A model generated the notes under the pieces. The model had not been told where the DNA came from. It worked only from the letters and a program-made list of their open reading frames with translations, and made no database searches. The position numbers were made by a program, and so were the translations under genes. Source: Desulfobaccales bacterium (GTDB lineage Bacteria; Desulfobacterota; Desulfobaccia; Desulfobaccales; 0-14-0-80-60-11). From it: a stretch of 64,000 bases of DNA. Each line of letters begins with the position of its first letter. Positions within the stretch are counted from its first letter, which is position 1. This document shows, piece by piece, positions 1 through 48,267 of the stretch. Location: contig JBAUPV010000030.1 of NCBI GenBank assembly GCA_049580385.1, positions 769,974 to 833,973 on the forward strand, written 5' to 3'.

Positions 1-532
1 AAGTGAACCCCGACACGGTCTGCCCGCCCAACATGATCCCGGTGATGAACTTACCGATCACCGGAAGGTGCCGGGGAATGTTGGAACTGACCACGGTGGC
101 CCAATAGGCCTTCATGTCCCAGGGCAGGAGGTAGCCCGTGAAACCGAGCCCCAAGGTGATCAGGAACAGGCAGACGCCCATAACCCAGGTGAGTTCCCGG
201 GGAGCCTGGTAGCTCCCGGCAAAGTAGGTGCTCAGCAGGTGCAGGAATACCACCAGGACCAGGGCGCCGGCCCCCCAGTGGTGGAGGCCGCGCAGGACCG
301 CGCCCAAGGGCACGTCCTTCATGATGAAGTCGATGGATTGATAGGCTTTGTCCGGCGAAGGATTGTAGAACATCGCCAGAATGACGCCGGTCACGGCCAT
401 GAGCCCGAACAGCAGGAGGGTGAGGGTTCCCAGGGTCGCCGACCAACCCGTGTCCGGGGGCAATTCCTTATACAGGAAGGGCCGCAGATATTTATCCCAA
501 CCGATGCGGTCCCGGAAATTCGGGCCAACCAT
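1..532 (-). CDS. Cytochrome b (bc1/b6f type), N-terminal part; gene continues beyond the left window edge
   Basis: Absent from the ORF track because no stop lies inside the window. Own translation from ATG 532-530: MVGPNFRDRIGWDKYLRPFLYKELPPDTGWSATLGTL...VLRGLHHWGAGALVLVVFLHLLSTYFAGSY...GFTGYLLPWDMKAYWATVV. The heme-ligand His positions and the GY.LPWD..YWA motif are typical of cytochrome b helices A-C. The ATG is 1 nt after the stop of the upstream Fe-S/Rieske gene. Confidence 0.85.
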   Translation of the reverse strand, partial: MVGPNFRDRIGWDKYLRPFLYKELPPDTGWSATLGTLTLLLFGLMAVTGVILAMFYNPSPDKAYQSIDFIMKDVPLGAVLRGLHHWGAGALVLVVFLHLLSTYFAGSYQAPRELTWVMGVCLFLITLGLGFTGYLLPWDMKAYWATVVSSNIPRHLPVIGKFITGIMLGGQTVSGFT

Positions 533-533
533 C

Positions 534-1775: not shown

Positions 1776-1823
1776 CTTCCTTTACTCTCGCCTGTTTCTC
1801 TGCCGGCTCTCCCGGGTAACGTC

Positions 1824-2165
1824 CTAGTAGATCGAATACCAAATTCTGGCCACGATGAGCAGCCCCAGGCCCACCAGGCCCCAAATGAGCAGCCGCTGGT
1901 ATTTGACCCCCACCAGGTTGAAATCGAGCAGGATGACCCGCAGTCCCAAGGCGGCATGGAAGGTTACCACCAACAGGAGCAGGAATTGAATGATGGGCTT
2001 GTAGGTCAGAGCGAGGTGCAGGGCCAACAAGACGATGATGGCCAGGGCCGAGAGACGCTGCCACAGCCAGGCCCACATGCCCACCTGGGTCCCCTCCCGG
2101 CGATGAGGGTCGTACTCCCCCCAGGCCAGAGGTTTCCGGTACTCGATGGGAATATCTCGCGCCAT
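1824..2165 (-). CDS. Small 3-TM membrane subunit, SdhC/SdhD-like anchor
   Basis: 113 aa with SD TAGGAG and three hydrophobic helices. HAALGLRVILLDF resembles the H-x3-G-x-R-x4-D signature of SdhC/SdhD anchors. The gene lies between the flavoprotein and Fe-S genes. Confidence 0.6.
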   Translation of the reverse strand: MARDIPIEYRKPLAWGEYDPHRREGTQVGMWAWLWQRLSALAIIVLLALHLALTYKPIIQFLLLLVVTFHAALGLRVILLDFNLVGVKYQRLLIWGLVGLGLLIVARIWYSIY

Positions 2166-2235
2166 TAAATGACTCCTATACTGCCCAAGGGCGTCGGGCC
2201 GCCAGGAAAAGCCGCAGGTTCCGGGCTGCCATCGC

Positions 2236-3960
2236 CTATTTTCTATACCCCTGGCACTCCTCCAAAGTCTTGTGCTTGAAGACTACGGGCTCCCTGCGGG
2301 CCAGGGGCAGTCCGTCCTCGCCGCGGCTCAGGTAGATATTGAAGAGCCCGTAGTCGTCCCGCTGCTCCGGAAAATCCTGGCGGAAGTGCGCCCCCCGGGT
2401 CTCCTCCCTCAACCTGGCCGCAAAAGCGGTCATCCTGGTGGTGTCCACCATGCTAATAAGGTCCAGGAAGGTGTTGTACATCATGTTGTACGCCGCGCCC
2501 CCGGTGACGCTAACGTGCTCCAGTTCTGCGGCGATGGCCTCAATCTCATTTAGAGCCTCGGAAAGATCCGGCTCCCGGCGGGCCACCCCGACCTCGTTCC
2601 AGTTCAATTCCTGGATCTGCCTGCGCAGGACGAAGGGGTCGGACCCGGAAGCGCGGCCGAAAGGAGCCTGGAGCCGGGCCATGGTTTCCTCCACCTGGCC
2701 GCGCCGGGTCTCCTTGACGGTCCGGTTGCCATTAACCAGGTACTGGCCCAGGGCCTTGCCGGTCAACCGGCCATAGACGCAGGAATCGCAGATGCCATTC
2801 CCGCCCAGGCGGTTGGCGCCGTGGACACCGCCGGAATCTTCACCGGCCACAAAAAGCCTTTCCGGGGTGGCCTTACCGCTGGTGTCGATCAGCGCGCCGC
2901 CCATGTAGTAGTGCGCCGTGGGGCCTACCGGAACACGGCCCTCGGCCAGGTCGTAATTGAACTGCTGGCAACGTTCGGCCATGCCGGGGAAATTCTCCAG
3001 GACGAAATCAGCCCCGAGATGGGAGGCGTCAATGTGTACCCCCCCCTCGGGGCAGGCCCGGCCAGCCATCATCTCCAGGTAAGAAGAGCGGCTGACGACA
3101 TCGCGGGTGGCTCGCTCGCCCACCTCGGGGGCGTAGCGAAGCATGTAGCGCTCGCCGACCCCGTTATAAAGGTAGGCGCCGGCGCCCCGGAGGCCCTCTT
3201 CCAGGAGGGCCCCTGCCACCACGCTCCCCGGGACGATGAGGCCGGTGGGGTGGAATTGGAGCATCTCCATATCCCGCATCACCGCCCCGGCCCGGTAAAG
3301 CATGGCGAGGCCGTCCACGGATTTCTCCGGCCCCGGGGCGTGGAAGCGGTAATGGGTGGGCCCTCCGCCGGTGGCCATTAGGGTGGCGGCCGCCTCGGCG
3401 ACGATGAACTCGCCGCGCCGCATGTTTAGCAGCAGCGCCCCTGTGACCATCTCCCCCCCCTCGTCCAGGAGCAGTTCGACGGCCCGGCATTCCTCCAAGA
3501 CCGGGATGCGGCGCTTCATGACCTGCTCGGTGAGGCGGCTGATGATCTCGATACCCGTGAGGTCGCCCTTGTGAACCGTACGATCGAAGACCTGGCCGGC
3601 GAAGGCCTTTTGATGGATGGTGCCGTCGGGATTGCGGTCGAAGAAGCAGCCGAATTTGGTTTCCATCTCCTTGATGGTGGGAGTGGCCTCTTCCACCAAG
3701 GTCTTGGCCAGGTCCTGGTCGTTGAGGTACTGGCCGCCCTTGAGGGTGTCCATGAAATGTTTCTCATGGGAGTCCTCAGAGTTCAACACCACGTTGAAGC
3801 CGCCTTGGACCATGCGGCTGCAGCCGCCTTTGCCCCGGAGCGCCTTGGTGACGATGAGGATGTTCAGGTCCGGATTGCGCTCCTGGGCATAGAGCGCCGC
3901 CATTTCGGCCGCGGCCCCCATGCCGATGATGAGCAAATCGGCCTTGACTTTGGTTACCAT
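2236..3960 (-). CDS. FAD flavoprotein subunit, succinate dehydrogenase/fumarate reductase family
   Basis: 574 aa with SD GAGGAG. The DLLIIGMGAAA dinucleotide fold, LQFHPTG, TRDVVSR, HGANRLGGN and ETRGAHFRQDFP are SdhA/FrdA signatures. The position of the covalent-FAD His (R-S-H-T) reads G-C-S-R, so FAD is probably non-covalently bound. Confidence 0.9.
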   Translation of the reverse strand: MVTKVKADLLIIGMGAAAEMAALYAQERNPDLNILIVTKALRGKGGCSRMVQGGFNVVLNSEDSHEKHFMDTLKGGQYLNDQDLAKTLVEEATPTIKEMETKFGCFFDRNPDGTIHQKAFAGQVFDRTVHKGDLTGIEIISRLTEQVMKRRIPVLEECRAVELLLDEGGEMVTGALLLNMRRGEFIVAEAAATLMATGGGPTHYRFHAPGPEKSVDGLAMLYRAGAVMRDMEMLQFHPTGLIVPGSVVAGALLEEGLRGAGAYLYNGVGERYMLRYAPEVGERATRDVVSRSSYLEMMAGRACPEGGVHIDASHLGADFVLENFPGMAERCQQFNYDLAEGRVPVGPTAHYYMGGALIDTSGKATPERLFVAGEDSGGVHGANRLGGNGICDSCVYGRLTGKALGQYLVNGNRTVKETRRGQVEETMARLQAPFGRASGSDPFVLRRQIQELNWNEVGVARREPDLSEALNEIEAIAAELEHVSVTGGAAYNMMYNTFLDLISMVDTTRMTAFAARLREETRGAHFRQDFPEQRDDYGLFNIYLSRGEDGLPLARREPVVFKHKTLEECQGYRK

Positions 3961-4097
3961 ACGCTCCTCGGGCCTACCCGGGATTTTAGGGCAGCGAGGG
4001 TTGGGGTCTTAAACCTCAGGTGCGGTAATCAGCCTGGGGTTGCGTGCCAATGGGCTTCCAGCCAGTGCCACCCCAGGCCTTCAGGCTAATGATGCGA

Positions 4098-5261
4098 TCA
4101 AGCGCTCCGGTAAAGCTTGGTAAAGACAAACTCCCGGTGCCCCAGGGCCTCAGTGGCAGTCAGGCGGCCGTTGGCGGTCCGCCGGGCCATCTCCAGAAGC
4201 CGGTCACCCGATTGATCCAGGGTCAATTCTCCGCGCAGGATGGCCGAGCAATCGTAATCGATGTGCTCGGACATGGTCTTCACGGTCAAGGGGTTGGCGG
4301 AGAGCTTGATGACCGGCAGGATGGGGTTGCCGCAAATGTTGCCCTGGCCGGTGGGGAAGAGGTGCACCACGAAACCGGCCGCGGCCCACAAGGTGACCGC
4401 CTCGGCCGCGGCCGAAGAAGTATCCATGAACCAGAGTCCGGGGCCGGTGGGGGTTTCGGCCGGGGCCAGCACGCCCACGTATTTAGACTTCTTGCCGATC
4501 TTTTGGAGGTTCCCGAAGGCCTTCTCCTCGATGGTGGTGAGTCCCCCCCGGATGTTGCCCTTGGTGGGCTGGGAACCGGAGAGATCATCAGTCTTGTTGG
4601 CCTGGATGAAGTCGTCGTAATCTTTCCAAATCTGGTAAAACTGCTCTCCGACGGCCGGGGTGGCGGCCCGTTCCTTACAAACCATCTCGGCGCCGGTGAT
4701 TTCGGAGGTCTCCCCGAAAGAAGTCGTGGCGCCCGCGGCCACCAGTTTGTCGATGGCGTTGCCCACAGTGGGGTTGGAGGCCAGGCCCGAGGTCGTGTCG
4801 GACTCGCCGCATTTCACGGAAACCCAGATCTCCGACAGGTCCACTTCAACGCGTCTCAGTTCCGAGGCCCACTGCAGGTATTCTTTCGCCTGGCGGCTGG
4901 CTGCGGCTATGGTGGTGAGGTCTCCGTGACGCTCGATATCAAACCCGGTTACAGGCTTTCCCGTTTTTTTTATGCCTTCCACCACGACGTTGGTCCAATC
5001 GGGCTCAATCCCGATGACCACCGCGGCGGCGACATTGGGGTTGGCGCCCATGCCGATAACGGTGCGAAAGAAAAGCCGCAGGTCTTCCCCAAATTGGAGG
5101 CGCCCGTAGGCGTGCGGAAGGGCCAGGGTGCCCTTGATATTGTTGGCCACGGCCTCGCAGGCCGCATTGGAAAGATCATCCAGGGCCAGGATGACAACAT
5201 GATTACGGACGCCCACCCGGCCGTTTTCACGGCGATAAGCCAAAACTTTGCCTAAACTCAT
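4098..5261 (-). CDS. UxaA/GarD/SuyB-family dehydratase (or sulfo-lyase) large catalytic subunit
   Basis: 387 aa. [25 protein letters not shown] and [13 protein letters not shown] recall the C-terminal catalytic part of altronate/galactarate dehydratases and sulfolactate sulfo-lyase SuyB. The ATG is 1 nt after the small-subunit stop. The substrate cannot be assigned from sequence. Confidence 0.8.
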
Positions 5262-5262
5262 C

Positions 5263-5541
5263 TTACCACCTCTTCGTCTTCAGGTTGTGGATATGGACAT
5301 GGGCCCCTTTGGAGAAGGGGGCGGAGACCACGCCAATATCATGGCCGTATTTGATCACCGTATCGCCCGGTTTCATGGCCTGAAGGGCAATCTTGTGGCC
5401 CAGGGGGATGTCCCCCAGGGCCTTAACTTCCACCGGCTCCTGGTTGTCCATGTACAGGCCTTTGATGGTCTCATTCGCCTTGATGTCCACCGTCGCCACG
5501 CCGACTGTGTCACCCTTTTCATGAACCAGAAATTGAATCAT
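5263..5541 (-). CDS. SAF-domain small subunit of a split UxaA/SuyA-type enzyme
   Basis: Track ORF trimmed to ATG 5541 (AAGGAG SD 7 nt upstream). [20 protein letters not shown]...IPLGHKIAL...GAHVHIHN is the SAF/beta-clip domain found at the N-terminus of UxaA or as a separate SuyA. Confidence 0.75.
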
Positions 5542-5711
5542 GCACGCGCTCCTTGGTTTGGTTAAGGTTGGGTTCTGCCACACTGGCAGCTACTTAATGG
5601 GGAGAGGAGGGCAGCTTGCCTCTAAAACCCCGGTCCGGGTGAGCGGCGAGTCCTCAATGTGGAGAAACTGTCCTGGCCACGACTCCCGGCTAGATTGTTC
5701 TGAGACGATGA

Positions 5712-5727
5712 TGCACAGGCCATGCCA
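5712..5727 (-). promoter_or_regulatory. Candidate sigma-54 (-24/-12) promoter
   Basis: The minus strand reads TGGCATGGCCTGTGCA. The GG and GC dinucleotides sit at canonical spacing (consensus TGGCACG-N4-TTGCA, 2 mismatches). It lies ~170 nt upstream of the SAF-subunit ATG, and a GAFTGA-type activator is encoded 1.2 kb upstream on the same strand. Confidence 0.5.
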
Positions 5728-5814
5728 TTGGTCGCTAAACGAGGGAACCGCTCTGGTGGCGCGAATCATGGCGGATTTGGCGTCCCGCTCGCCAGGCCCA
5801 AATGAGACCAATTT

Positions 5815-5840
5815 TCGGCTCTGAGCCGACTATTCGGCTC
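5815..5840. promoter_or_regulatory. Candidate enhancer (UAS) palindrome
   Basis: TCGGCTC-T-GAGCCGA is a perfect 7+1+7 palindrome, followed by a third TCGGCTC half-site. It is centred ~95 bp upstream of the -24 box, a typical distance for a bacterial enhancer-binding protein site. The function is inferred only. Confidence 0.3.
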
Positions 5841-5931
5841 GGCGTCATCTTGGCCTTGTGGCGCCTAAGCTTGCAGGCCAAACGAGCCAATTAATTTTGC
5901 AGATGGGGCGCGTTTTTAGGCCCCGGAGAGT

Positions 5932-6753
5932 TTAGGGGGCAGTGCAAGGTGGATCAGGAGGGCAGGGGCGCCTGCCAACCCGATAATTGCGAAAGAGCCG
6001 TAAGGTCTGCCGCACGGTGGCCGCCAACCGGAAGCGGCCTTGAGGCGCGAGGCTGTTGGCGGTGGCCTCGCAGAGGCAGGCGCCGAAGGACAATCTGGAT
6101 ATGCCGGCGGCCATGGCCCCCAGGATATCCCGGGGAGTGAGCAGGCTGGCATCGTGGAGGGACAGCCCGCCGGGCACGCTTTGGCGGAGCCGTCTCAGGA
6201 GTTCCATATCCAATCTGAACCCTCGCCTGGTGTCGAGGGGCAGGGATACGGCCAAGGAGTCGATACCGGTTTCGAGGACAAATTTAGCCGCCAGAGCGCA
6301 GATGAGGCATTGGCCCGCGGAGTCCTTACCGAAATCAAAGAAGGCTCCGATCGCTCCTTCCAGGGGGACCCGGGCTCCCGCCGCCAGGTTCACCGCTCTC
6401 GCGGTCAGTTTCACGTTGCTTGCGAGGGGCAGAAAAGAGCCGTCGAACATAACCGTGGAAAAGCCACAATCGAGGGCTATACTCACCAGGTCGAGGTTAC
6501 GGGCATGGCTCAAGATCACCATTACCGGAACCGAGGCGCGTTCCGCCACGGAGGTGGCTACCCCGCTGAGAAGCTTGATAGCCGGCGGCGCCACCAGGTC
6601 GGCATTGACGCACAGCACCACCGGCGAGTCCTCTTCCTCGGCAGTGGCAACGACAACCCGGATGCTCTCCTGGTCCTTGACGCTGAAAGCCGCAAGACAC
6701 CCCTGGCGGCGGGAAGGCCTCGCCAGCGCCTGGACACGGCCGCTGTCCTGCAT
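5932..6753 (-). CDS. Divergent class II ketose-bisphosphate aldolase-family protein
   Basis: Trimmed to ATG 6753 (AGGAGGAG SD). It shows a recognisable but divergent F_bP_aldolase-like pattern: AAFSV..ESIRVVVATAEEEDSPVVL, VPVMVILSHARN, GFSTVMFDGS, LEGAIG. The activity is uncertain. Confidence 0.5.
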   Translation of the reverse strand: MQDSGRVQALARPSRRQGCLAAFSVKDQESIRVVVATAEEEDSPVVLCVNADLVAPPAIKLLSGVATSVAERASVPVMVILSHARNLDLVSIALDCGFSTVMFDGSFLPLASNVKLTARAVNLAAGARVPLEGAIGAFFDFGKDSAGQCLICALAAKFVLETGIDSLAVSLPLDTRRGFRLDMELLRRLRQSVPGGLSLHDASLLTPRDILGAMAAGISRLSFGACLCEATANSLAPQGRFRLAATVRQTLRLFRNYRVGRRPCPPDPPCTAP

Positions 6754-6906
6754 GTCGTCTCCTCCTGAGGCGGCCGCAGCCGCGCCGGGAACCCGCGGCA
6801 ACCGCGGTTTCCCAACGCCCAATCATTCAATATTCGTGCCAAACAGGCCACAGGTAAAACGCGGCCGCACGAGTGGACGACCCCGAAGAGACTGCGCCAG
6901 CTTAAA

Positions 6907-8499
6907 TTATTGGGTAAATTTATGCGGGTTGATGCCGTGGATGCGGAGCCTGTATTGAAGAGTGGACTTGGGCACTTTCAGGATGGCGGCGGCGCCATGT
7001 TTACCGCCGACGACCCCCTTGGTCAGGGAAAGCACCTTGATGAGGTGGGCGCGCTCCATTTCGTCCAAGGTGGGGAGGGGGGAGCAGATCTCATCCTGCT
7101 GGAGGTTGAGCAGCGGCTCCAAGTCCCGGCGGGTTACCGTCTTGCCGCTGAACACAATGATCAGACGGCTGATGATATTTTTGAGCTCCCGCACGTTTCC
7201 GGGCCAGGAGTGCTGTTTCATCAAATCCATGACTTCGCGGGAAAAAATGGGAGGAGCACGGCGAATGGACTCGGCCTGGGCCTGGGTCAAATGGCGGACG
7301 AGGGGCTCGATCTCTTCGACCCGCTCTCTGAGAGGCGGGAGGTGGAAGGAAACCGTATTGAGCCGGTAGAACAGGTCGGACCTGAAGGTCTTTTCTCTAA
7401 TGCCAGTATGCAGGTCATTATTCGAGGCCGCGATCACCCTGAAATTCACATCGACGGGACGGCTGTCCCCCACCCGCTCGAAGCGCTGGTCATGCAAGAC
7501 GTGGAGCAGTTTGGCCTGGAGGGGCATGGGCAGTTCGGCGATTTCATCCAGGAAGATGGTGCCGCCATCGGCCATCTCGAAGCGGCCGACCCGCTTGGAA
7601 GAGGCGCCCGTAAAGGCGCCCTTGACGTGTCCGAACAGTTCGCTCTCGAACAGGCTGGGCGACAGGGCCGGGCAATTGACCTTGACGAACAGGTGGTCCC
7701 GCCTGCCGCTCAGGTAGTGCAGGTAGCGAGCGATGCAGTCCTTGCCGGTCCCGGTTTCGCCGGTGATCAGCACGCTGGCGTCGCTGTCGGCGATAATCTC
7801 CACCTGCCGCATAATTTCCCGCATGGCCGGACTCGAATAATAGAAATTATCCGGGTTGTACTGGGGCGCCACCTGTTTCAGGAGGTAGCGCTTCTGTTGC
7901 TCCAGGCTGGCATTCAGGCTTATCAGCTTGAGGTGGGAGAGCATGTTATCCACGGCCAAGGCCACCTGCCCCGAGAGTTCCACCAGGAACTGAGCCAGTT
8001 CGTCCATCATCTCGGGCGGTTCCTTAAAAGAAAAGTGCAGAGAGCCCACCACCTGGTCGCGGACGATGAGCGGAAAGGCCATGGTCGCTCGCAGGCCGGC
8101 AGCCGTCATGAGCCTGATTGTGTGCCAGTGGCCGTACTGGGACATATCCGGGATAATCAGCGGCTGCCGCGATGTGACTACGGCCCGGGCCACGGGCCCC
8201 TTGTCCAGGGAGCGGGAGACGTCATCCATGCCCTCGACCAGAATGCCTTCAGCCATGGCAAACCAGCTCAGGGAATTGGAATCAGGTTCGTAAATATTGA
8301 TGCTGAAGCGATCATAATTAATGATCTTGCGAATCTCCCGGGCCATACTCCGGAACAGATTCTCCTGGGAGGTCTGATTGACGATGGCATTGTTGATTTC
8401 CAGAAGGACTTTATAACGGGAGGCAGGATTCCAGACAATCTTGGGGCAATTGCGGTTAGGTTGCGGGCGACGGCTCCTGGCCTTGAGGTCCTGTTTCAT
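6907..8499 (-). CDS. Sigma-54-dependent transcriptional activator with N-terminal GAF-like sensor
   Basis: 530 aa. The central AAA+ domain has the GETGTGKD Walker A and ESELFGHVKGAFTGA (GAFTGA sigma-54 contact loop). The C-terminus has a Fis-type HTH (AAAILKVPKSTLQYRL). Confidence 0.9.
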   Translation of the reverse strand: MKQDLKARSRRPQPNRNCPKIVWNPASRYKVLLEINNAIVNQTSQENLFRSMAREIRKIINYDRFSINIYEPDSNSLSWFAMAEGILVEGMDDVSRSLDKGPVARAVVTSRQPLIIPDMSQYGHWHTIRLMTAAGLRATMAFPLIVRDQVVGSLHFSFKEPPEMMDELAQFLVELSGQVALAVDNMLSHLKLISLNASLEQQKRYLLKQVAPQYNPDNFYYSSPAMREIMRQVEIIADSDASVLITGETGTGKDCIARYLHYLSGRRDHLFVKVNCPALSPSLFESELFGHVKGAFTGASSKRVGRFEMADGGTIFLDEIAELPMPLQAKLLHVLHDQRFERVGDSRPVDVNFRVIAASNNDLHTGIREKTFRSDLFYRLNTVSFHLPPLRERVEEIEPLVRHLTQAQAESIRRAPPIFSREVMDLMKQHSWPGNVRELKNIISRLIIVFSGKTVTRRDLEPLLNLQQDEICSPLPTLDEMERAHLIKVLSLTKGVVGGKHGAAAILKVPKSTLQYRLRIHGINPHKFTQ

Positions 8500-8669
8500 G
8501 CTGATCTGAAGGATCCTTTTAATAGCGCTTGGGTCTGGCTAACTACATAATTTATAACCCGAAGGAGGTATATATTCAACGGGAATTAGCGGGCGACAGC
8601 CTGGCAAGGGTGGGGAGCGCCCTGAGGGGGGAGGACCGGCCGGCGGCCAGCTCTCGTGAAACCTGGTCC

Positions 8670-9731
8670 TTATCCCCTTTGCAGGTCCTCGAGGGAGAAG
8701 GGGATGCCAAACTCACTGCACAGAGCCTTAAACTCTGAGATCGTTTCCGCGCCGATGGGTATGCCTAGCGCTCGGTTTTCGCGGGTCTTTCTGATGGAGC
8801 GCTCGCCGGGGATGAGGATCTCTTCGACTCCCGGGAGCCTCTCGCAGCCCTTGATATGGTCCAGTAAGCCATTAATCCGCTCTTTAAAGAGGGCGATATC
8901 CATGAAGGCGGCGATATTGAAAAGGCAGAAGAAATGGCCGATGTTTTGCGTGCGGGAAAAATCCTTGTACAGGGAGCCCACCCCGGGACCGATATCCGAC
9001 CCGGAGAGCACCCCCGCCAGCACCTCTATCATTAACGCCAGGGCGTAACCTTTGTGGCCCGCCATGGTGAGGACGGTCCCGGCCATGGCCCTATCGGGAT
9101 CGGTAGTCGGGTTTCCCTCCGGGTCCAGGGCCCACCCCAGGGGAATGGCCTCACCCCGGCGTCGGGCGGCTATGATGTTGCCCCGGGCCACCACCGAGGT
9201 GGAGAGATCGATTTTTACCGGATAGCCTTTACCGGTGGGGAATGAGATCGCCAGGGGATTGGTGCCGAAAAATGCCGAACGTCCGCCCGTAGGAGGCATG
9301 GCCGACTCGACGTTGGTCATCGCCAAAAGGGCCATCTCATCCTCGGCGGCTTTATTGGTGAAGTAAGAAAGCGCCCCGCAATGGTTGGAGTTGTGGATGG
9401 CGGCGGCGGCACAGCCCGATTCCCGGGCCATGGGAATCAAGAGCTGGAGCGTCTTGTAAGCCTGGACCTGGCCCAACCCGTTGTTGGCATTGATGGTCAG
9501 CGCGGCCGGCTGCTTCTTCTCGATGGTGATCTCGGCCTTGGGATCGATGAGGCCTTCCCGCAGGCGCCGGGAGTAGATGCCTACCCGTGAAACTCCATGC
9601 GTGGAGGTTCCCTGCAGATCGGCCTCGACGAGCGAGTCGGCCAGAATCAGCGCCTCGGCTGCCGGCACCCCGGTGCTTTCGAAGATTTTGGCTGCCAATT
9701 CTCTTATCCGTTCTGGATGGAAGTGCGCCAT
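8670..9731 (-). CDS. Ldh_2-family 2-hydroxyacid dehydrogenase (malate/L-lactate/(R)-sulfolactate ComC/ureidoglycolate dehydrogenase family)
   Basis: The 403-aa track ORF would overlap the MFS gene, so it is trimmed to ATG 9731 with AAGGAGGA SD: MAHFHPERIRELAAKIF... Family motifs are STHGVSRV, NSNHCGALSYF and MAGHKGYALALMIEVLAG. Confidence 0.8.
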   Translation of the reverse strand: MAHFHPERIRELAAKIFESTGVPAAEALILADSLVEADLQGTSTHGVSRVGIYSRRLREGLIDPKAEITIEKKQPAALTINANNGLGQVQAYKTLQLLIPMARESGCAAAAIHNSNHCGALSYFTNKAAEDEMALLAMTNVESAMPPTGGRSAFFGTNPLAISFPTGKGYPVKIDLSTSVVARGNIIAARRRGEAIPLGWALDPEGNPTTDPDRAMAGTVLTMAGHKGYALALMIEVLAGVLSGSDIGPGVGSLYKDFSRTQNIGHFFCLFNIAAFMDIALFKERINGLLDHIKGCERLPGVEEILIPGERSIRKTRENRALGIPIGAETISEFKALCSEFGIPFSLEDLQRG

Positions 9732-9820
9732 TATGAGATCCTCCTTAAGGCTTAGGTCAATGGATTCCCATGATAAAAAGAAAGCAAAATTCGAGCCAGT
9801 GCCAGGATGAAAAAGTGAAG

Positions 9821-11050
9821 CTACAAATTTGTCGGGATAAGTTCGTCTCGTCCGGCCAGGCCGGGAAACAGGCGCATCCACAGCGCCACCACCAATAAGG
9901 TGCCGAGACCGCCGATTACCACCGCCGGCACCGTGCCCAACCAGGCGGCAGTGACTCCGGATTCGAATTCTCCCAGTTGATTGGAGGCGCCGATAAAGAT
10001 AAAATTGACCGCACTCACCCGTCCCCTTTTTTCATCCGGCGTCTCCAACTGCACCAGGGTCGAGCGAATTACCACGCTGATTATGTCGGTGGCCCCGAGG
10101 ACCATGAGGGCGGCCAGGGACAGCCAGAAAAACCGGGAGAGACCGAAGACGATGGTGGCGATGCCAAACCCGGCTACCGCGGCGAACATGATCCTGCCGA
10201 CCCCGTGTTTGACGGGCCGCCGCACCAGATACGCCGACATGGAGAGCGCTCCCACCGCCGGCGCCGCCCGCAGCAATCCCAGACCCCAGGGACCCGTGAA
10301 GAGAATGTCCCGGGCAAAGATAGGCAAGAGAGCGGTAGCGCCGCCCAGCAGCACTGCGAACAAGTCCAGCGAAATGGCGCCGAGTATATCGGGCTTGCTC
10401 TTGATATAGGCGACCCCTTCGAAAACCGATTTCAGGGTAGGTGGTTCCCGGCGAGGCGCAATCGCAGGCGGAGAGATGCCCAAGACAAACAGCGCTGCCA
10501 GACCATAACAGGCGGCAATGCAGGTGTAGGCTACGCCTGCGCCGGCGAGGTAGATGAAGCCGCCCAGGGCCGGGCCCAGGATGCTCCCGAGCTGCCACCC
10601 CGTCGCGCTCAAGGCGAGGCATTCCGGCAATATGTCCGGCTTCACCAACGTGGGCAAAAAAGCCTGCATGGTCGGGTTCTGGAACGCTCTGGCCGCGCCG
10701 AACAGGAAAACACAGGCGAGGATAAGGTGAGGGCTAAGGGCGTGGGCAAAGCTGCCGGCGGCCAGCATTGCGGCCAGGGCGAATTCACTGAGGAAACAGA
10801 TTGAAGCAATCCGCCGCCGCTCATAGCGATCAGCCACGTGTCCTACCACCAAAGAGAGAAGGAATTGAGGCAGGAACAGCGACAGGCCGATGAGTCCCAG
10901 GCTGAGGGCGCTCCGGGTCAAGTCGTAAATCTGCCAACCCACGGCAACCGAGAACATTTGATAGGCGAGATTGGAAGAGATTTGAGCAGCCAGAAACCGC
11001 TTGAAGGCAGGAATGCTAAAGAGATGACGTTGGCTCGGCTGCATCTTCAT
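9821..11050 (-). CDS. MFS transporter (EntS/MFS_3-like)
   Basis: 409 aa with about 12 hydrophobic helices. FKRFLAAQISSNLAYQMFSVAVGW...GHVADRYERRRI is the typical MFS N-terminus and loop 2-3 motif. Confidence 0.85.
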   Translation of the reverse strand: MKMQPSQRHLFSIPAFKRFLAAQISSNLAYQMFSVAVGWQIYDLTRSALSLGLIGLSLFLPQFLLSLVVGHVADRYERRRIASICFLSEFALAAMLAAGSFAHALSPHLILACVFLFGAARAFQNPTMQAFLPTLVKPDILPECLALSATGWQLGSILGPALGGFIYLAGAGVAYTCIAACYGLAALFVLGISPPAIAPRREPPTLKSVFEGVAYIKSKPDILGAISLDLFAVLLGGATALLPIFARDILFTGPWGLGLLRAAPAVGALSMSAYLVRRPVKHGVGRIMFAAVAGFGIATIVFGLSRFFWLSLAALMVLGATDIISVVIRSTLVQLETPDEKRGRVSAVNFIFIGASNQLGEFESGVTAAWLGTVPAVVIGGLGTLLVVALWMRLFPGLAGRDELIPTNL

Positions 11051-11307
11051 GGGGCGCCCAGCCCCCTCGACGATTTGGCTAAGCGTGAGTGCGGGCTAAA
11101 CGTCTTATCTAACCCAGAATCACCCTTAGGACAAGGAAGAATTTAGGCGGCAGCCTCAGGGTACGCCTGGGGAATTTTTATCAGACAATTCTTGGGAGGT
11201 GATGGTCGTTTGCGGCCTGGCAGGGTGGCTACTGATAGTATCTCTAATTTCAACGACCTGAACTAACCGCAGCATCAGGCCCTGCCGCGGTTGGCGGCAA
11301 ACGGAGG

Positions 11308-11616
11308 TCACTTTTTCATGGAGGCCTCCAGGCGGCTCAGACGCTCCTCCAGACAGGAGAAGGGGGTGGGAGGCGGCGTCCCTATCGGGGAAGGCGCCTG
11401 GAAGGCAGGATTGCCGGCCCACCAATCGATGCCGATTTCCCGGGCCTTGTCCACCGAGCAAATTACCAGGCGGATCTGCAAGCTGAGCAGTTCCACGTCC
11501 ACTAGTTTGATCTTGATATCCCCGGCAATGACAATGCCCCGGTCCAGGATCCGCTCTAGCAGGTCCGCCAGGGTGCTGGATTGCATAGCGTGGGTGATGG
11601 CTGCCTGGCGTGCCAT
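11308..11616 (-). CDS. gvpJ: Gas vesicle protein GvpJ (GvpA-family paralogue with extended C-terminus)
   Basis: Trimmed to ATG 11616 (AAGGAG SD). MARQAAITHAMQSSTLADLLERILDRGIVIAGDIKIKLVDVELLSLQIRLVICSVDKA is the GvpA/J core. Confidence 0.8.
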   Translation of the reverse strand: MARQAAITHAMQSSTLADLLERILDRGIVIAGDIKIKLVDVELLSLQIRLVICSVDKAREIGIDWWAGNPAFQAPSPIGTPPPTPFSCLEERLSRLEASMKK

Positions 11617-11620
11617 GGCT

Positions 11621-12010
11621 TCACTCCTTGAATAGCCGGCCCAGGGGACCCAGGTCGAGTGAGAGGTCTGCTTCCTCCAGGCCAAATTCCTGGCGTAGCC
11701 GGTCGATTTCCTGAGCCTGGCGTCTCAGGGTTTCGCCCAGCCGTTCAATCTCTTCGGGGCTGAGGCGGTCGGCTTCCATCCTGCGGATGGCCTGTCGTTC
11801 CAGGAGTTCGTGCAGGAGTTTCACCAGGGCCAGGACCAGCCGCCCCAGCCCGTTTTTCACCTGGTCTTTATCCAGGTTGAGGCGGGGCGGGGAGGTTTCA
11901 ACTCCCGGCAGCCATTCGCCTTCCCGGGGTTCCAGCAAGCGGGCAAAGATGCCGGGAGAGGTGCATTCCACCTGAGAAGGTCCGGAGACCTTGGCTGGTC
12001 CGTGCTTCAA
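11621..12010 (-). CDS. gvpK: Gas vesicle protein GvpK
   Basis: 129 aa. GLGRLVLALVKLLHELLERQAIRRM is the GvpK signature helix. The TTG start overlaps the upstream stop (TTGA). Confidence 0.8.
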   Translation of the reverse strand: MKHGPAKVSGPSQVECTSPGIFARLLEPREGEWLPGVETSPPRLNLDKDQVKNGLGRLVLALVKLLHELLERQAIRRMEADRLSPEEIERLGETLRRQAQEIDRLRQEFGLEEADLSLDLGPLGRLFKE

Positions 12011-12237
12011 TGAATCTGCTCCTTTTCCAGGAAGATCTGCCGCCGGGCCCCTTCAATGGAAGTGATGACCAACTGCAGGCCCAGGTACAACAGGTCCACG
12101 TCCGCCACGGAGACCAGCACTTCTCCGGAGACCACCGCTCCCTTGGTGAGAATCCGATCCAGGGCCTCACACAGGGAGAGATGCTCCTCCTCTTCCTCCC
12201 ATGGCGCCTCGGGTCGCGACCAGCTCTTTGACCTCAT
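12007..12237 (-). CDS. Small GvpA-family paralogue (GvpS/GvpM-like)
   Basis: 76 aa. LCEALDRILTKGAVVSGEVLVSVADVDLLYLGLQLVITSIEGA is a GvpA-fold core. The ATG overlaps the gvpG stop (ATGA). Confidence 0.65.
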   Translation of the reverse strand: MRSKSWSRPEAPWEEEEEHLSLCEALDRILTKGAVVSGEVLVSVADVDLLYLGLQLVITSIEGARRQIFLEKEQIH

Positions 12238-12494
12238 TGATCCTCCTCCCCGGCCCCGATGAAGGCCCGCCGCTCCGGAAGCTGCTCCAGCCGGTCCAGG
12301 AGCTGCCGTTCCCGGTTATCGAACTCCTCTTCGGCAATCCTGCCGGACTCCAGCATCAGGTAGAGTTCCCGCAACTCCGCGGTAATGAGGTCGCCTTCCC
12401 GGGCCGAGTCCTCCTGGCCGGCGTCGCGTACCTTCTCCGCCAGCCACACGATCCCCTTGATCGGGGATAACAAGAGATCATCCAGTAAGAACAT
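12234..12494 (-). CDS. gvpG: Gas vesicle protein GvpG
   Basis: 86 aa. MFLLDDLLLSPIKGIVWLAEKV...GRIAEEEFDNRERQLLDRL matches the GvpG pattern. Confidence 0.75.
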   Translation of the reverse strand: MFLLDDLLLSPIKGIVWLAEKVRDAGQEDSAREGDLITAELRELYLMLESGRIAEEEFDNRERQLLDRLEQLPERRAFIGAGEEDQ

Positions 12495-12503
12495 TAGCCG
12501 CCC

Positions 12504-13322
12504 TTAAAGTTTGAGGTTGAGGTTTACAAAGCTGGCCGCAGGCCAGGGACCGCTGTAATCGAAAGCGACATTGTGATCAAACCGGGAGGCGGCCTCGAAA
12601 ACCCCGGCCTCGAATCGGGCCTGCGCCTCGGGTTCGCGCCCCACCAGGCAGGCCAGGTTCAGCACCTCGCGTTCTTGCCGGCAGCGGTTGCGCTTGCTTT
12701 CAGAGCAAAAGGGAGCCATGATTTCTTCAACCAGATCAGCGCAGGCTTCCCGATCTTCATGGAGGAGGCGCTCGAACAGGCGGCCAATCTCAATCTTGTT
12801 TTCCTGGGTCGCCTCCCGGTTGGCGCCAAATATTTGATCCCGCAGGGCCCGCAGTTCCGGATGGCTGCTGACAAAATATTCGAAGATGTTGGGCACCTCC
12901 CAGACGACCCGCAGCCCCATCTCCACCTTACCGGCCAGCCGGCGTAACTGTTTCACCAGGACCCCCTGGTGGCAGGCTAAAATGTTGAGGATGGCGCGGT
13001 CGCCGTCGGCGATCACGCCGAAGGAGATGGGCAGCATGGCTTCGGCCTCCTGGAGGCGTTTGAGCACCAGCTGGTGGGCGGCCAGGTTGGCGCGCTGCGG
13101 GCGAATCCTCTGAGGTGGGACATCGCTGACGACCGCGGCTACCGGCCCATGGGCCAGGGGATAAACCACGCCGCCGTTGATCCCACAGGGCCCGTAATCC
13201 CTGGCTGCCGTGGCGGTTATGACCGCATACAGATATCGGCCCCGCAGACCTTTATCATAAAGGTTGGCCTCCTGAGGTCGGGAGTTGCGAATCTTGCGGG
13301 CCGTGGCGGACTCGGCTTTCAT
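12504..13322 (-). CDS. Gas vesicle protein GvpF/GvpL family (copy 1)
   Basis: Trimmed to ATG 13322 (AAGAGGAG SD). The YLYAVI N-terminal strand and the C-terminal DYSGPWPAASFVN motif are typical of GvpF/L. Confidence 0.8.
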   Translation of the reverse strand: MKAESATARKIRNSRPQEANLYDKGLRGRYLYAVITATAARDYGPCGINGGVVYPLAHGPVAAVVSDVPPQRIRPQRANLAAHQLVLKRLQEAEAMLPISFGVIADGDRAILNILACHQGVLVKQLRRLAGKVEMGLRVVWEVPNIFEYFVSSHPELRALRDQIFGANREATQENKIEIGRLFERLLHEDREACADLVEEIMAPFCSESKRNRCRQEREVLNLACLVGREPEAQARFEAGVFEAASRFDHNVAFDYSGPWPAASFVNLNLKL

Positions 13323-13354
13323 GGATGAACTCCTCTTTGGGGGCTGCGGCTGGG

Positions 13355-13549
13355 TTAGACCCTGGCCTCCGGCTGGCGGTTCTCTGCCGGGAGAACCGGG
13401 ATCGCCGATTTTACGCATTTGATATGGCCTTGCACCGTTTTGATCAGCAGGAGATGGTGGCAGACAAAACACTTAATCTCCCCTTCATAGTCCTCATAGG
13501 CCTCGTCAATGTCGAAGTTGAAGCCGCACTCCAGGCAATTGATCTTCAT
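13355..13549 (-). CDS. 64-aa zinc-ribbon protein (two CxxC pairs)
   Basis: Hidden inside a 146-aa track ORF. ATG 13549 has an AAGGAG SD: MKINCLECGFNFDIDEAYEDYEGEIKCFVCHHLL... Confidence 0.5.
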   Translation of the reverse strand: MKINCLECGFNFDIDEAYEDYEGEIKCFVCHHLLLIKTVQGHIKCVKSAIPVLPAENRQPEARV

Positions 13550-48204: not shown

Positions 48205-48267
48205 TGTCTTAATTCCTCCTTATCTAATCGCCCCTAAGTCAGCAAAGGACTTCTCTGGGCGCTGATC

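Follow-up and report, generated by a model that had tools for sequence, protein, structure and literature searches.

A sigma-54-controlled sulfolactate sulfo-lyase operon is predicted to feed sulfite reduction in a Desulfobaccales bacterium

We propose that a 64,000-nt stretch of DNA from a Desulfobaccales bacterium (assembly GCA_049580385.1, contig JBAUPV010000030.1, positions 769,974-833,973; hereafter the window), of which positions 4,098-11,050 were followed up, carries genes for a sulfolactate sulfo-lyase, SuyAB, which would be under sigma-54 control, would feed dissimilatory sulfite reduction (Dsr), and would head a longer operon in which a 3-sulfopropanoate route may be encoded. To this explanation as a whole we assign a probability of about 0.8. 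The Fe(II)-dependent lyase would split (2R)-sulfolactate into pyruvate and sulfite, and the freed sulfite would either be reduced by DsrAB, encoded 42 kb away, or be exported via TauE; a ComC-type Ldh_2 dehydrogenase may, on the basis of synteny, connect sulfopyruvate-yielding substrates or the other sulfolactate enantiomer to the lyase. The core of this proposal, a sulfolactate-to-pyruvate-plus-sulfite module feeding Dsr, had been put forward in a sequence-only reading of the window and is supported by phylogeny, by a gap in sequence identity, by the cysteine pattern, by gene context and by the published biochemistry of the orthologous group.

All minus-strand genes named in that reading were recovered where it had placed them (Table 1), as was its -24/-12 promoter, and its placement of dsrABDN in the window was borne out by dsrA, dsrB, a dsrD-sized ORF and a dsrN-sized ORF. 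Its unit, however, had ended at 4098, and the operon runs on downstream through 534 and past the window start. The MFS, Ldh_2, activator, SuyA and SuyB genes have equal lengths in independent gene calls of 96%-identical Desulfobaccales MAGs; for the aldolase-like gene those calls give 269 aa, versus 273 aa here. The suyA gene is preceded by a ribosome-binding site, AAGGAG.

Table 1. Features of the suy locus and the dsrAB genes, in window coordinates except where the contig is named
Feature	Position	Strand	Basis
MFS transporter (MFS_3/EntS-like), 409 aa	9821-11050	-	Pfam MFS_3 130 bits, MFS_1 113 bits
Ldh_2 dehydrogenase, ComC-like, 353 aa	8670-9731	-	Pfam Ldh_2 388 bits
GAF/sigma-54 activator, 530 aa	6907-8499	-	Pfam GAF, Sigma54_activat, AAA_lid_14
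Degenerate class II aldolase-like protein, 273 aa	5932-6753	-	Weak PF01116, 108 bits
Palindrome TCGGCTCAGAGCCGA plus third half-site GAGCCGA, putative activator site	5815-5840	-	Sequence read directly
Sigma-54 (-24/-12) promoter TGGCATGGCCTGTGCA	5712-5727	-	Sequence read directly
suyA, SAF small subunit, 92 aa	5263-5541	-	Pfam SAF
suyB, large catalytic subunit, 387 aa	4098-5261	-	GD_AH_second, GD_AH_C domains
SdhA/TfrA-like flavoprotein, 574 aa	2236-3960	-	FAD_binding_2, Succ_DH_flav_C
Sdh_cyt-like small membrane subunit, 113 aa	1824-2165	-	Pfam Sdh_cyt
SdhB-like iron-sulfur subunit::Rieske fusion, 413 aa	534-1775	-	Fer2_3, Fer4_8, Rieske domains
Cytochrome b::cytochrome c fusion gene, 5' part, runs off window start	1-532	-	Pfam
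Fumarase-like alpha and beta, LUD, SDF transporter, TauE, beyond window start	contig G000:C30:764351-769055		Pfam
dsrA	48268-49509		
dsrB	47134-48204		

Identity of the lyase subunits

The assignment of the SAF protein and the 387-aa protein as the two subunits of (2R)-3-sulfolactate sulfo-lyase, and not of a sugar-acid dehydratase, is well supported by sequence comparison. In a phylogeny run with UxaA and GarD, the 387-aa protein nests in an 81-row SuyB clade (100/100 support, stem length 3.25); UxaA and GarD branch elsewhere, as do three further split proteins of the UxaA type. Of the four cysteines that UxaA/GarD-type dehydratases conserve, the window SuyB lacks three, and every one of the 81 clade rows shows L, R and a gap at these positions, in agreement with the loss of those cysteines described for sulfolactate sulfo-lyase (PMC6336799). 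Among the matches listed for plasmid records, the two best are 64-69% identical to the window SuyB and the next at most 38%; plasmid records in the 60-80% identity band number 13. The link to characterised SuyB is provided by the canonical gene context of the clade and by the identity statement in a paper on Desulfovibrio sp. DF1, which belongs to the same phylum as the window: recombinant DF1 SuyAB cleaves sulfolactate, and 397 homologues of >70% identity were reported across proteobacteria and sulfate reducers (PMC6278857). The clade includes a Paracoccus aestuarii locus with the order GntR-SuyA-SuyB-TTT transporter-hydroxyacid dehydrogenase-Ldh-PSE exporter, to whose canonical copy the window SuyB is 69% identical.

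The window SuyB is the sole member of its family in the genome, in single copy. Of 80 related loci, 76 have suyA directly upstream of the large-subunit gene and four are cut by contig ends; a 92-aa suyA is also called in loci L092-L095. Neighbours in the 80 loci include Ldh_2 (37), SDR (15), HpsN-type histidinol dehydrogenase (14), Zn-ADH (14), a PF03601 SuyZ-type exporter (12), TRAP subunits (DctM in 18) and TauE. It is very improbable that the enzyme here cleaves some other beta-substituted 2-hydroxy acid, for instance a different sulfonate or an analogue with a thio or phospho group. The locus does include proteins whose presence is unexplained (the LUD protein, the EntS-like MFS and the degenerate aldolase-like protein), but the window SuyB shares 66-88% identity with clade members in at least six phyla, in contexts that all point to sulfolactate; conservation this tight usually marks a single retained function, and the DF1 enzyme has been confirmed biochemically.

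Hexuronate or aldarate catabolism had earlier been considered equally defensible. A UxaA/GarD-like dehydratase, acting alongside a reductase of the Ldh_2 type and a class II aldolase, would be compatible with Pfam domains common to altronate and galactarate dehydratases, and the NCBIfam galactarate-dehydratase model does match the 387-aa protein, but at 153 bits against a cut-off of 731. Sugar-acid clusters of Bacillus, Haloferax and Sporomusa also contain uncharacterised split UxaA-type pairs, so the split SAF-plus-catalytic architecture alone is not diagnostic. Against this alternative, too, stand the inclusion of TauE in the operon, the residues missing from the aldolase-like protein, and a genome (94.6% complete) in which no UxaC or mannitol-dehydrogenase-type UxaB gene was found and no KdgD scored over cut-off. 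It is effectively excluded by the tree, the cysteines and the missing pathway genes, and we regard it as extremely improbable.

In the aldolase-like protein itself, I/V-LSH stands in place of HLDH and HDASL in place of HGGSG, and the GxxHG loop is missing. A working class II aldolase is ruled out by the missing catalytic Asp and one missing zinc-binding histidine motif; owing to these losses the protein, once a hint of sugar-acid breakdown, supports neither pathway. It has about 15 close homologues, those named being from Desulfobaccales and several of them lying on contigs equal in length to contigs with SuyB hits, and similarly altered copies occur in suyAB loci of Desulfovibrio and Desulfovibrionales.

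Predicted regulation and the upstream genes

Transcription of suyAB would start at the sigma-54 promoter TGGCATGGCCTGTGCA (5727-5712), 186 nt upstream of the suyA start codon, and would be switched on by the GAF activator, encoded just upstream, upon binding to the palindrome TCGGCTCAGAGCCGA (5829-5815), 96 bp upstream of the promoter. The activator, the predicted dedicated regulator of the suy operon, carries GETGTGK (Walker A), ESELFGH and GAFTGA motifs and a C-terminal HTH, and rpoN is present in the genome. Full-length orthologues (47-77% identity) adjoin suyAB in 13 of 80 loci, and an orthologue at 59% identity is found in a Desulfovibrio suyAB locus. Three related loci (L001, L092 and L093) have the palindrome at the corresponding position, with an equivalent -24/-12 promoter in L001, the sole one of them checked for a promoter; related TCGGC-N5-GCCGA palindromes occupy activator-adjacent spacers of L094 and L011, and in L014, L018, L023, L057 and L106 a sigma-54 promoter lies ahead of the operon's first gene. 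The same activator family stands beside suyAB whatever feeder genes accompany the pair, so that sulfolactate, the intermediate common to these loci, is most likely what it senses.

The Ldh_2 gene, the only one in the genome, forms a transcription unit separate from suyAB. Its product is a probable ComC-like (2R)-sulfolactate/sulfopyruvate oxidoreductase: the top-scoring NCBIfam model is that for L-sulfolactate dehydrogenase (NF040650, 281 bits, under the cut-off of 500), and among PDB entries 2x06 (M. jannaschii sulfolactate dehydrogenase) and 1vbi tie at 229 bits. In 11 loci from Nitrospirota, Verrucomicrobiota and Acidobacteriota, an orthologue with 51-62% identity is encoded no more than about 3 kb from suyAB and in most cases right next to it. 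The usual partner dehydrogenase is absent at the locus, the best 2-hydroxyacid dehydrogenase homologue (42%) being encoded elsewhere in the genome. The MFS protein resembles exporter-type transporters; the MFS-Ldh_2 pair is also present in the related MAG locus L092, and the MFS gene is not conserved near suyAB in other loci.

The longer operon and a possible 3-sulfopropanoate route

The suyAB genes are the first pair of a predicted 11-gene operon, followed in order by genes for the SDH-like flavoprotein, Sdh_cyt, SdhB::Rieske, cytochrome b/c, the fumarase-like subunits, LUD, SDF and TauE; L092 and L093 keep this order apart from TauE, which is not represented among their called genes. 3-Sulfopropanoate is the sulfonate analogue of succinate, and (2R)-sulfolactate is the L-malate-like enantiomer, the one SuyAB accepts. 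At roughly even odds, and with its direction uncertain, the operon would encode a route from 3-sulfopropanoate through sulfoacrylate and sulfolactate to pyruvate and sulfite. The SDF-type dicarboxylate transporter would import 3-sulfopropanoate, the SDH-like complex, wired to the Rieske/cytochrome b module, would oxidise it to 3-sulfoacrylate, and the two-subunit class I fumarase-like hydratase would turn this into (2R)-sulfolactate.

The flavoprotein, a candidate 3-sulfopropanoate dehydrogenase, scores 495 bits with the TfrA model, under cut-off, and is 33% identical to the housekeeping SdhA. It is decidedly unlikely that the SDH-like, fumarase-like and SDF genes are merely co-transcribed with a genuine SuyAB and handle succinate, fumarate and malate, with Ldh_2 as a malate dehydrogenase. 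All canonical succinate-binding His/Arg residues are kept (HPT, RG, H(Y/F)xMGG and NRLG motifs), SDF belongs to the DctA/GltP family, and malate dehydrogenases do occur within the Ldh_2 family; yet the genes are extra paralogues, 32-37% identical to the housekeeping SdhAB and class I fumarase already in the genome, and all sulfonate-linked flavoproteins share substitutions beside the catalytic Arg ((T/S)E to EE, RGEGG to RG(A/S)G). Moreover, the fumarase-like subunits, 65-80% identical across genomes, always accompany the SDH-like genes plus SuyAB, TauE, ComA or DsrAB.

Outside the window, the SDH/fumarase module adjoins suyAB in Nitrospirota, Desulfobacterales, Desulfovibrio, Alphaproteobacteria and Acidiferrobacterales; at least three of these loci also have TauE, as does the window's own operon. 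Cultured organisms that carry the cluster include Hansschlegelia beijingensis DSM 25481 (L069). The Sdh_cyt-like subunit is conserved in four loci (L092, L093, L006, L010) and the SdhB::Rieske fusion in eight (L001, L010, L023, L092, L097, L098, L106, L107), and the alphaproteobacterial and Acidiferrobacterales modules use SdhB and Sdh_cyt anchor subunits of the ordinary kind. Of 400 genomes sampled from the phylum, 15 have an SDH-like orthologue and only two of these also have SuyB; the module is therefore not dependent on SuyAB, which counts against the proposed 3-sulfopropanoate route. In SuyB-less Desulfobacterota the module lies beside ComA and dsrAB, and a ComA-coupled copy may work in reverse, forming sulfonates.

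Sulfite reduction takes six electrons, and a sulfolactate user is therefore electron-poor and not in need of a further sink (compare PMC6278857). This speaks against the possibility, which we consider unlikely, that the window operon itself is reductive, sulfolactate being partly cleaved by SuyAB and partly dehydrated to sulfoacrylate by the fumarase-like enzyme; the SDH-like complex would then reduce sulfoacrylate to 3-sulfopropanoate ("sulfoacrylate respiration") with electrons from menaquinol via the Rieske/cytochrome b module, and TauE would export the product. A flavoprotein fed by quinol oxidation would be consistent with the SdhB::Rieske fusion and the cytochrome b next to it, the coupling to sulfite-fixing ComA next to dsrAB suggests sulfonate formation in the SuyB-less relatives, and a TauE protein of Enterococcus gilvus is annotated as a probable 3-sulfopropanoate exporter (PMC11489063). 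The operon, however, has an SDF-type importer for a dicarboxylate-like substrate, and the module occurs with SuyAB and TauE in presumed aerobes (Alphaproteobacteria, Acidiferrobacterales), where an oxidative role is natural.

For the oxidative route, 3-sulfopropanoate is a known fermentation product that supports sulfite respiration in Bilophila; the genes for its degradation are unknown, and a route via sulfoacrylate and sulfolactate has been proposed in a thesis (PMC11489063; PMC12890257). A suyAB pair with a sigma-54 activator in a sulfite respirer represents a known kind of module, and the feeding of sulfite respiration by SuyAB has been published; the longer suy operon, if our reading is correct, would add to this candidate genes for 3-sulfopropanoate breakdown, which are still unpublished.

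The lyase pair and the sugar-acid alternative

Every gene that the sequence-only reading had listed between 4098 and 11050 on the minus strand was found as described (table), and external gene calls on 96%-identical contigs of Desulfobaccales MAGs give equal lengths and order, save for an aldolase-like gene of 269 rather than 273 aa. Of the dsrABDN genes, dsrA and dsrB (47134-49509) were also recovered in the window, with a score above the curated cut-off logic for dsrA, and behind them lie ORFs of a size that fits dsrD and dsrN. A scan of positions 1-11400 for sigma-70 promoters and terminators returned counts at chance level, and no transcription-unit boundaries were drawn from it.

Table. 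Genes of the suy operon and its neighbors within the window
Feature	Position	Strand	Remark
MFS transporter	9821-11050	minus	EntS-like
Ldh_2 dehydrogenase	8670-9731	minus	
GAF/sigma-54 activator	6907-8499	minus	
PF01116 aldolase-like protein	5932-6753	minus	273 aa
suyA, SAF protein	5263-5541	minus	92 aa
suyB, GD_AH protein	4098-5261	minus	387 aa
SdhA/TfrA-like flavoprotein	2236-3960	minus	
Small Sdh_cyt-like subunit	1824-2165	minus	
SdhB-like protein fused to Rieske domain	534-1775	minus	
Cytochrome b::c fusion	runs off window start	minus	

The gene for SuyA, a 92-aa SAF protein, ends 1 nt ahead of that for the 387-aa SuyB, and such a pair, with the SAF gene directly upstream, is present in 76 of 80 related loci, the remaining four being truncated at contig ends. 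Relatives of the large subunit number in the hundreds, span many phyla at 70-99% identity and are named either sulfolactate sulfo-lyase beta (JGI) or UxaA family hydrolase (NCBI). The sole NCBIfam model returned by a search with SuyB is that for galactarate dehydratase, there being apparently no SuyB model in that collection; SuyB reaches 153 of the 731 bits required by TIGR03248, and the solved relatives found in the PDB are limited to GarD. In a maximum-likelihood tree, SuyB of the window falls within a clade of 81 rows (support 100/100) on a stem of 3.25 substitutions per site, with two context-verified UxaA, one context-verified GarD and a further three split enzymes of UxaA type, encoded in sugar-acid clusters, placed outside. 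This clade is anchored by the statement on >70% identity in the paper on Desulfovibrio sp. DF1 and by a plasmid locus of Paracoccus aestuarii with the canonical gene set (GntR regulator, SuyA, SuyB, TTT transporter, hydroxyacid dehydrogenase, Ldh-family oxidoreductase and PSE exporter), whose SuyB is 69% identical to that of the window. Matches were obtained in 467 plasmid records. Thirteen of these are 60-80% identical, the best two of those listed having 69% and 64%, after which the listed identities drop to 38% or less.

Four cysteines are conserved throughout the UxaA/GarD superfamily, sulfolactate sulfo-lyase excepted (Watanabe et al., PMC6336799). The corresponding alignment columns hold Cys in 6 of 7 outgroup rows, and L/I, R, a gap and Cys in all 81 rows of the SuyB clade; the window SuyB, with L30, R54 and a gap, has lost three of the four dehydratase cysteines and keeps C151 alone. 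Recombinant SuyAB of strain DF1 splits sulfolactate to pyruvate and sulfite, the cleavage being Fe(II)-dependent and acting on the (2R) form, and 397 homologues >70% identical to it occur in proteobacteria, deltaproteobacterial sulfate reducers and Firmicutes (Burrichter et al., PMC6278857).

Gene context was surveyed by fetching 80 genomic loci of SuyB relatives and clustering their neighboring genes. Of the genes near suyAB, Ldh_2 is present in 37 loci, a D-2-hydroxyacid dehydrogenase in 22, DctM (one of the TRAP transporter subunits seen) in 18, SDR genes in 15, Zn-ADH genes and histidinol-dehydrogenase-type (HpsN-like) genes in 14 each, and PF03601 putative sulfate exporters of the SuyZ/TauZ family in 12; TauE and ComC-like genes likewise figure among the neighbors of the clade. 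The SDR and Zn-ADH families are those of HpsO and HpsP in DHPS degradation. The suyAB pair studied here has its own link to sulfite-handling and sulfolactate-forming genes, with TauE inside the operon and Ldh_2 close by. The host genome, which is 94.6% complete, contains SuyB as its only family member; UxaC and a mannitol-dehydrogenase-type UxaB are absent from it, and no KdgD scores over cut-off.

We file the pair as SuyAB, a sulfolactate sulfo-lyase, an assignment from sequence that is supported by the tree, the cysteine columns, gene context, the DF1 biochemistry, the single family member and the lack of sugar-acid genes. The proposal of a module converting sulfolactate to pyruvate and sulfite is supported by the tree, identity gap, cysteine signature and context. 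The competing view, that hexuronate or aldarate catabolism would be equally defensible, has the position of the pair in the tree, its cysteines and the missing UxaC, UxaB and KdgD all against it, and a dehydratase of that kind is rejected. Given a genuine SuyAB, the ambiguity with sugar acids is gone.

Companion genes and sigma-54 control

The Ldh_2 protein, encoded by the sole gene of its kind in the host genome, matches PF02615 at 388 bits. Its best curated model is L-sulfolactate dehydrogenase (NF040650), at 281 bits against a cut-off of 500, so it is described here as ComC-like and not as a proven equivalog; the best solved relatives, tied at 229 bits, are a Thermus type-2 malate/lactate dehydrogenase and the sulfolactate dehydrogenase of M. 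jannaschii. Orthologues (51-62% identity) lie within ~3 kb of suyAB, mostly directly adjoining, in 11 loci from Nitrospirota, Verrucomicrobiota and Acidobacteriota, in several of which a 2-hydroxyacid dehydrogenase gene comes next, and such linked genes have been named comC (PMC6018796). That partner dehydrogenase is absent from the window's suy locus. A reading of the protein as ComC is supported by conserved linkage and falls short on the curated score. The pairing of Ldh_2 with the MFS gene is kept in a close-relative locus, and across the 80 related loci the MFS gene shows no further conservation near suyAB. In a 96%-identical relative (L092:2723-5770), the Ldh_2 and activator genes are set apart by an inserted type ISP restriction-modification gene of 1015 aa, which indicates that the MFS-Ldh_2 pair can be separated from the suy operon. 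Directly upstream of the MFS gene begin genes for gas vesicles (GvpA/J-like and GvpL/F, 11308-13472), which bear no relation to the suy module.

A role for the aldolase-like protein as a class II aldolase is contradicted by its motifs. HLDH is replaced by I/V-LSH, with loss of the catalytic Asp (now Ser), the GxxHG zinc-ligand loop is deleted, and HGGSG has become HDASL, in which phosphate-binding GGSG is altered to DASL and the His varies among close homologues. A working fructose/tagatose-bisphosphate aldolase is ruled out by these missing catalytic, zinc and phosphate motifs. There are only ~15 close homologues, those with a source name coming from Desulfobaccales MAGs and several lying on contigs of the same size as contigs with SuyB matches; similarly altered copies (HLNH, without GxxHG) occupy suyAB loci in Desulfovibrio and another Desulfovibrionales genome. 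As judged from these sequences, the degenerate protein is a recurrent companion of suyAB, one not described in the literature searched and returned by the ESM Atlas among generic class II aldolase clusters only.

The -24/-12 promoter proposed ahead of suyA is present in the spacer as TGGCATGGCCTGTGCA (5727-5712), with GG and GC at the expected spacing and a palindrome, TCGGCTCAGAGCCGA, 96 bp upstream. The palindrome recurs at the matching place in three fetched loci (L001, L092 and L093) and the promoter also in L001; rpoN is present in the host genome, and the activator carries Walker A, ESELFGH, GAFTGA and a Fis-type HTH. Full-length activator orthologues (47-77% identity) adjoin suyAB in 13 of the 80 loci, and a Desulfovibrio suyAB locus has one at 59%. 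The feeder genes in such loci vary, being HpsN-like, LarA-like with TRAP or TTT transporters, or SDH/fumarase-like, and because they differ, the intermediate that they share, sulfolactate, would be the most economical guess for the activator's ligand. No description of this sigma-54/GAF regulator family of suyAB was found in the literature searched, and the paper on the sigma-54 regulome of Desulfovibrio vulgaris does not cover suyAB.

Several further loci are of interest with regard to sulfonates. A LarA-family gene (nickel-pincer lactate racemase-like) is located directly upstream of suyA in a Desulfovibrio sp. (L094:8415-9707), and others within a few kb of suyAB in six of the 80 loci (L052, L057, L015, L008, L007 and L028). 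A sulfolactate racemase, for which the product is a candidate, would stand in for the dehydrogenase pair SlcC/ComC; the literature searched yielded no LarA-type sulfolactate racemase. Contig 21 of the host genome (L084:1238-8326) carries an HpsN-like histidinol dehydrogenase gene that shares 48% identity with the copy in a Grimontia suy locus and is not the hisD gene, which lies on contig 15. An SDR gene and a branched-chain-amino-acid-type ABC importer come after it, and the set is possibly a unit for oxidation of DHPS or cysteinolate feeding sulfolactate or cysteate. A second TauE, 80% identical to the operon copy, ends a cluster on contig 17 (G000:C17:85.5-99.2 kb; L085:7506-15082 and L096:1264-7227) encoding an MFS protein, a ferredoxin-like protein, acyl-CoA dehydrogenase, ETF beta and alpha, an HdrD-like CCG protein, two CoA-transferase subunits and a hydrolase, with a divergent sigma-54 activator alongside and a sulfatase and radical-SAM/SPASM maturase adjoining; this may be a CoA-dependent organosulfur pathway.

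The downstream genes and a possible route from 3-sulfopropanoate

Genes on the same strand follow suyB with gaps of 137, 70 and 48 bp. Beyond the window, the series in the host genome goes on to the two subunits, alpha and beta, of a class I fumarase-like enzyme (G000:C30:767546-769055), then a LUD-domain protein, an SDF transporter of DctA/GltP type and TauE. Related MAGs keep this order through SDF, TauE not being among their called genes. The LUD (LutC-like) protein, between the fumarase-like genes and the transporter (G000:C30:766900-767511; L083:8927-9538), is stand-alone and has three paralogues in the genome, one adjoining another SdhA-like flavoprotein at C30:35497-37654. Just past the TauE end, on the opposite strand, is an extracellular-electron-transfer-like set (L083:470-6254; G000:C30:758443-764227) comprising a multihaem cytochrome with paired CXXCH, an MtrB/PioB-type outer-membrane porin and a NapC/NirT-like multihaem protein.

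The housekeeping SdhAB and fumarase genes lie elsewhere in the genome and are 32-37% identical to the operon copies. Other suyAB loci with SDH-like and fumarase-like genes come from Nitrospirota, Desulfotignum, an uncultured Desulfovibrio, several Alphaproteobacteria and one Acidiferrobacterales genome, several proteobacterial copies having ordinary SdhB and Sdh_cyt subunits and three of these TauE. Among cultured bacteria, Hansschlegelia beijingensis DSM 25481 (L069) has the cluster and Desulfovibrio isolates one of L106 type, and the plain suy locus is present in Grimontia and Enterovibrio. The flavoprotein retains the catalytic His/Arg substrate-binding motifs, and all sulfonate-linked SdhA-like copies show two changes flanking the catalytic Arg, (T/S)E to EE and RGEGG to RG(A/S)G. 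That the downstream genes handle ordinary C4-dicarboxylates is, in our estimate, quite improbable. The literature searched does not describe suyAB joined with an SDH-like::Rieske/cytochrome b and fumarase-like module.

We put at roughly even odds the proposal that the operon carries out oxidation of 3-sulfopropanoate, by analogy with the conversion of succinate through fumarate to L-malate. The SDF importer would take up 3-sulfopropanoate, the complex-II-like dehydrogenase would oxidize it to 3-sulfoacrylate, the fumarase-like hydratase would add water to give sulfolactate, and SuyAB would free sulfite for DsrAB. By CIP priority rules the L-malate-like enantiomer of sulfolactate is (2R), the substrate of SuyAB. 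Operation of the same genes in the reductive direction is unlikely, if somewhat less so than a role in C4-dicarboxylate metabolism. The oxidative route from 3-sulfopropanoate is made plausible by literature on that compound, which gut Firmicutes make from sulfoquinovose, which Enterococcus gilvus and related Firmicutes excrete, and which serves Bilophila wadsworthia as a sulfite source by degradation genes that are not known (PMC11489063). A sulfoacrylate/sulfolactate route was proposed for Roseovarius in a thesis, as cited there, and a 2026 review holds the mechanism of degradation to be still unclear (PMC12890257).

If the SDH-like enzyme solely fed SuyAB, genomes with its orthologue would be expected to carry SuyB. 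Of 400 genomes sampled from the phylum, 15 have an orthologue of the flavoprotein (51-72% identity) and 17 have SuyB; both are found, in one cluster, in 2 of the 15, a result that lowers the odds of a strict route from 3-sulfopropanoate to SuyAB. Ten of the 13 SuyB-less genomes were fetched; the SDH-like genes come with a Rieske protein or fusion in 10/10 and cytochrome b in 9/10, and fumarase-like genes (65-80% identity) are present in 7/10, the other contigs being short. In one SuyB-less family the cluster holds a SucCD-like ligase, 2-hydroxyacid dehydrogenase, RpiR regulator, fumarase-like subunits and ComA (phosphosulfolactate synthase, over cut-off), and continues with SDH-like::Rieske, cytochrome b/c, a nitrilase-family protein, DsrA, DsrB and a DsrN-like protein. 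At L098:1493-19562, from a SuyB-less member of Desulfobacterota, the same-strand ComA/SDH-like/fumarase-like cluster directly adjoins dsrA, dsrB and the DsrN-like gene. Another family has HdrD/NarI-like proteins, acyl-CoA dehydrogenase and a TPP enzyme; the TPP enzyme of locus L099 was rejected as Xsc (162 bits, cut-off 676) and belongs to the PRK08327 family. As the independent markers SuyAB, TauE, ComA and DsrAB all attest, the SDH/fumarase module is tied to C3-sulfonate and sulfite chemistry rather than to SuyAB itself, and it may run in different directions in different contexts. Neither SuyB nor the SDH-like flavoprotein is present in 12 sampled genomes of the same family or in one of the same genus, which marks the operon as an accessory trait in the lineage.

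Taking all parts jointly, we give somewhat less than an even chance (about 0.45) to the view that the locus is the regulatory and desulfonating front of an undescribed pathway of anaerobic 3-sulfopropanoate respiration. The dehydrogenase would be hard-wired to the Rieske/cytochrome b components, a wiring that may overcome unfavourable electron transfer to menaquinone; a sulfolactate-sensing GAF/sigma-54 activator would switch on the whole pathway; and the aldolase-like companion, with its remodelled active site, may have acquired a new function. For bacteria that respire sulfite in sediments, soils and guts, organosulfonates are a major source of sulfite and hence of H2S. A Desulfobaccales lineage here joins the known sulfolactate respirers, the context yields a sigma-54/GAF regulator family of suyAB, candidate LarA-like racemases and the degenerate aldolase-like companion, and the operon architecture points to candidate genes for 3-sulfopropanoate degradation.

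Relation to known systems

Characterised SuyAB enzymes (EC 4.4.1.24; Desulfovibrio sp. DF1, Paracoccus pantotrophus NKNCYSA and Cupriavidus pinatubonensis JMP134) share with the window pair a small SAF and a ~42 kDa GD_AH subunit, the same tight orthologous clade and the cysteine-poor signature. In strain DF1 sulfite has been shown to pass to Dsr, which the window organism likewise possesses, and the path from SuyAB through sulfite to dissimilatory sulfite reduction is already published (PMC6278857, PMC6018796). The window locus differs in having a GAF/sigma-54 activator where GntR-family regulators are annotated beside proteobacterial suyAB, in the co-transcription, as gene order suggests, of suyAB with SDH-like, Rieske/cytochrome b and fumarase-like genes, and in its lack of HpsN, DhpA or SlaB feeder genes; the enzyme here is known from sequence.

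SlcC, ComC and SuyAB constitute the sulfolactate pathway of Chromohalobacter salexigens. A suyAB-comC-slcC arrangement was reported from dsr-carrying peatland Acidobacteria (Hausmann et al., PMC6018796), and these systems have in common with ours the linkage of a ComC-type Ldh_2 to suyAB where the organism also has DsrAB. The Ldh_2 copies adjoining suyAB in acidobacterial MAGs are 51-56% identical to that of the window. Unlike them, the window locus has no partner (S)-sulfolactate dehydrogenase (SlcC or 2-hydroxyacid dehydrogenase) and no TTT importer, and its Ldh_2 is in a separate unit with the MFS gene.

With the UxaA/GarD superfamily (altronate, galactarate, D-idonate and D-arabinonate dehydratases; GarD structure 6u7l), SuyB has two domains in common, GD_AH_second and GD_AH_C, as well as 22 invariant alignment columns, one of them a cysteine. 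SuyAB, in contrast, consists of separate subunits instead of a single polypeptide and has lost three of the four cysteines that bind iron; a long branch sets SuyB apart and no sugar-acid genes are nearby. The downstream genes repeat the series of respiratory complex II and class I fumarase (flavoprotein, Fe-S subunit, small anchor and two-subunit Fe-S hydratase) with catalytic motifs kept, yet they are extra paralogues of the housekeeping set, placed between suyAB and TauE, with a Rieske domain joined to the Fe-S subunit and a cytochrome b::c fusion coming next, and their presumed substrates are sulfonate analogues. The activator, finally, resembles those of the NifA/FhlA type in its GAF sensor, AAA+ domain with GAFTGA and Fis-type HTH, and in the upstream palindrome ~100 bp before a -24/-12 promoter, but it scores below every curated equivalog cut-off and forms an orthologous group of its own that travels with suyAB.
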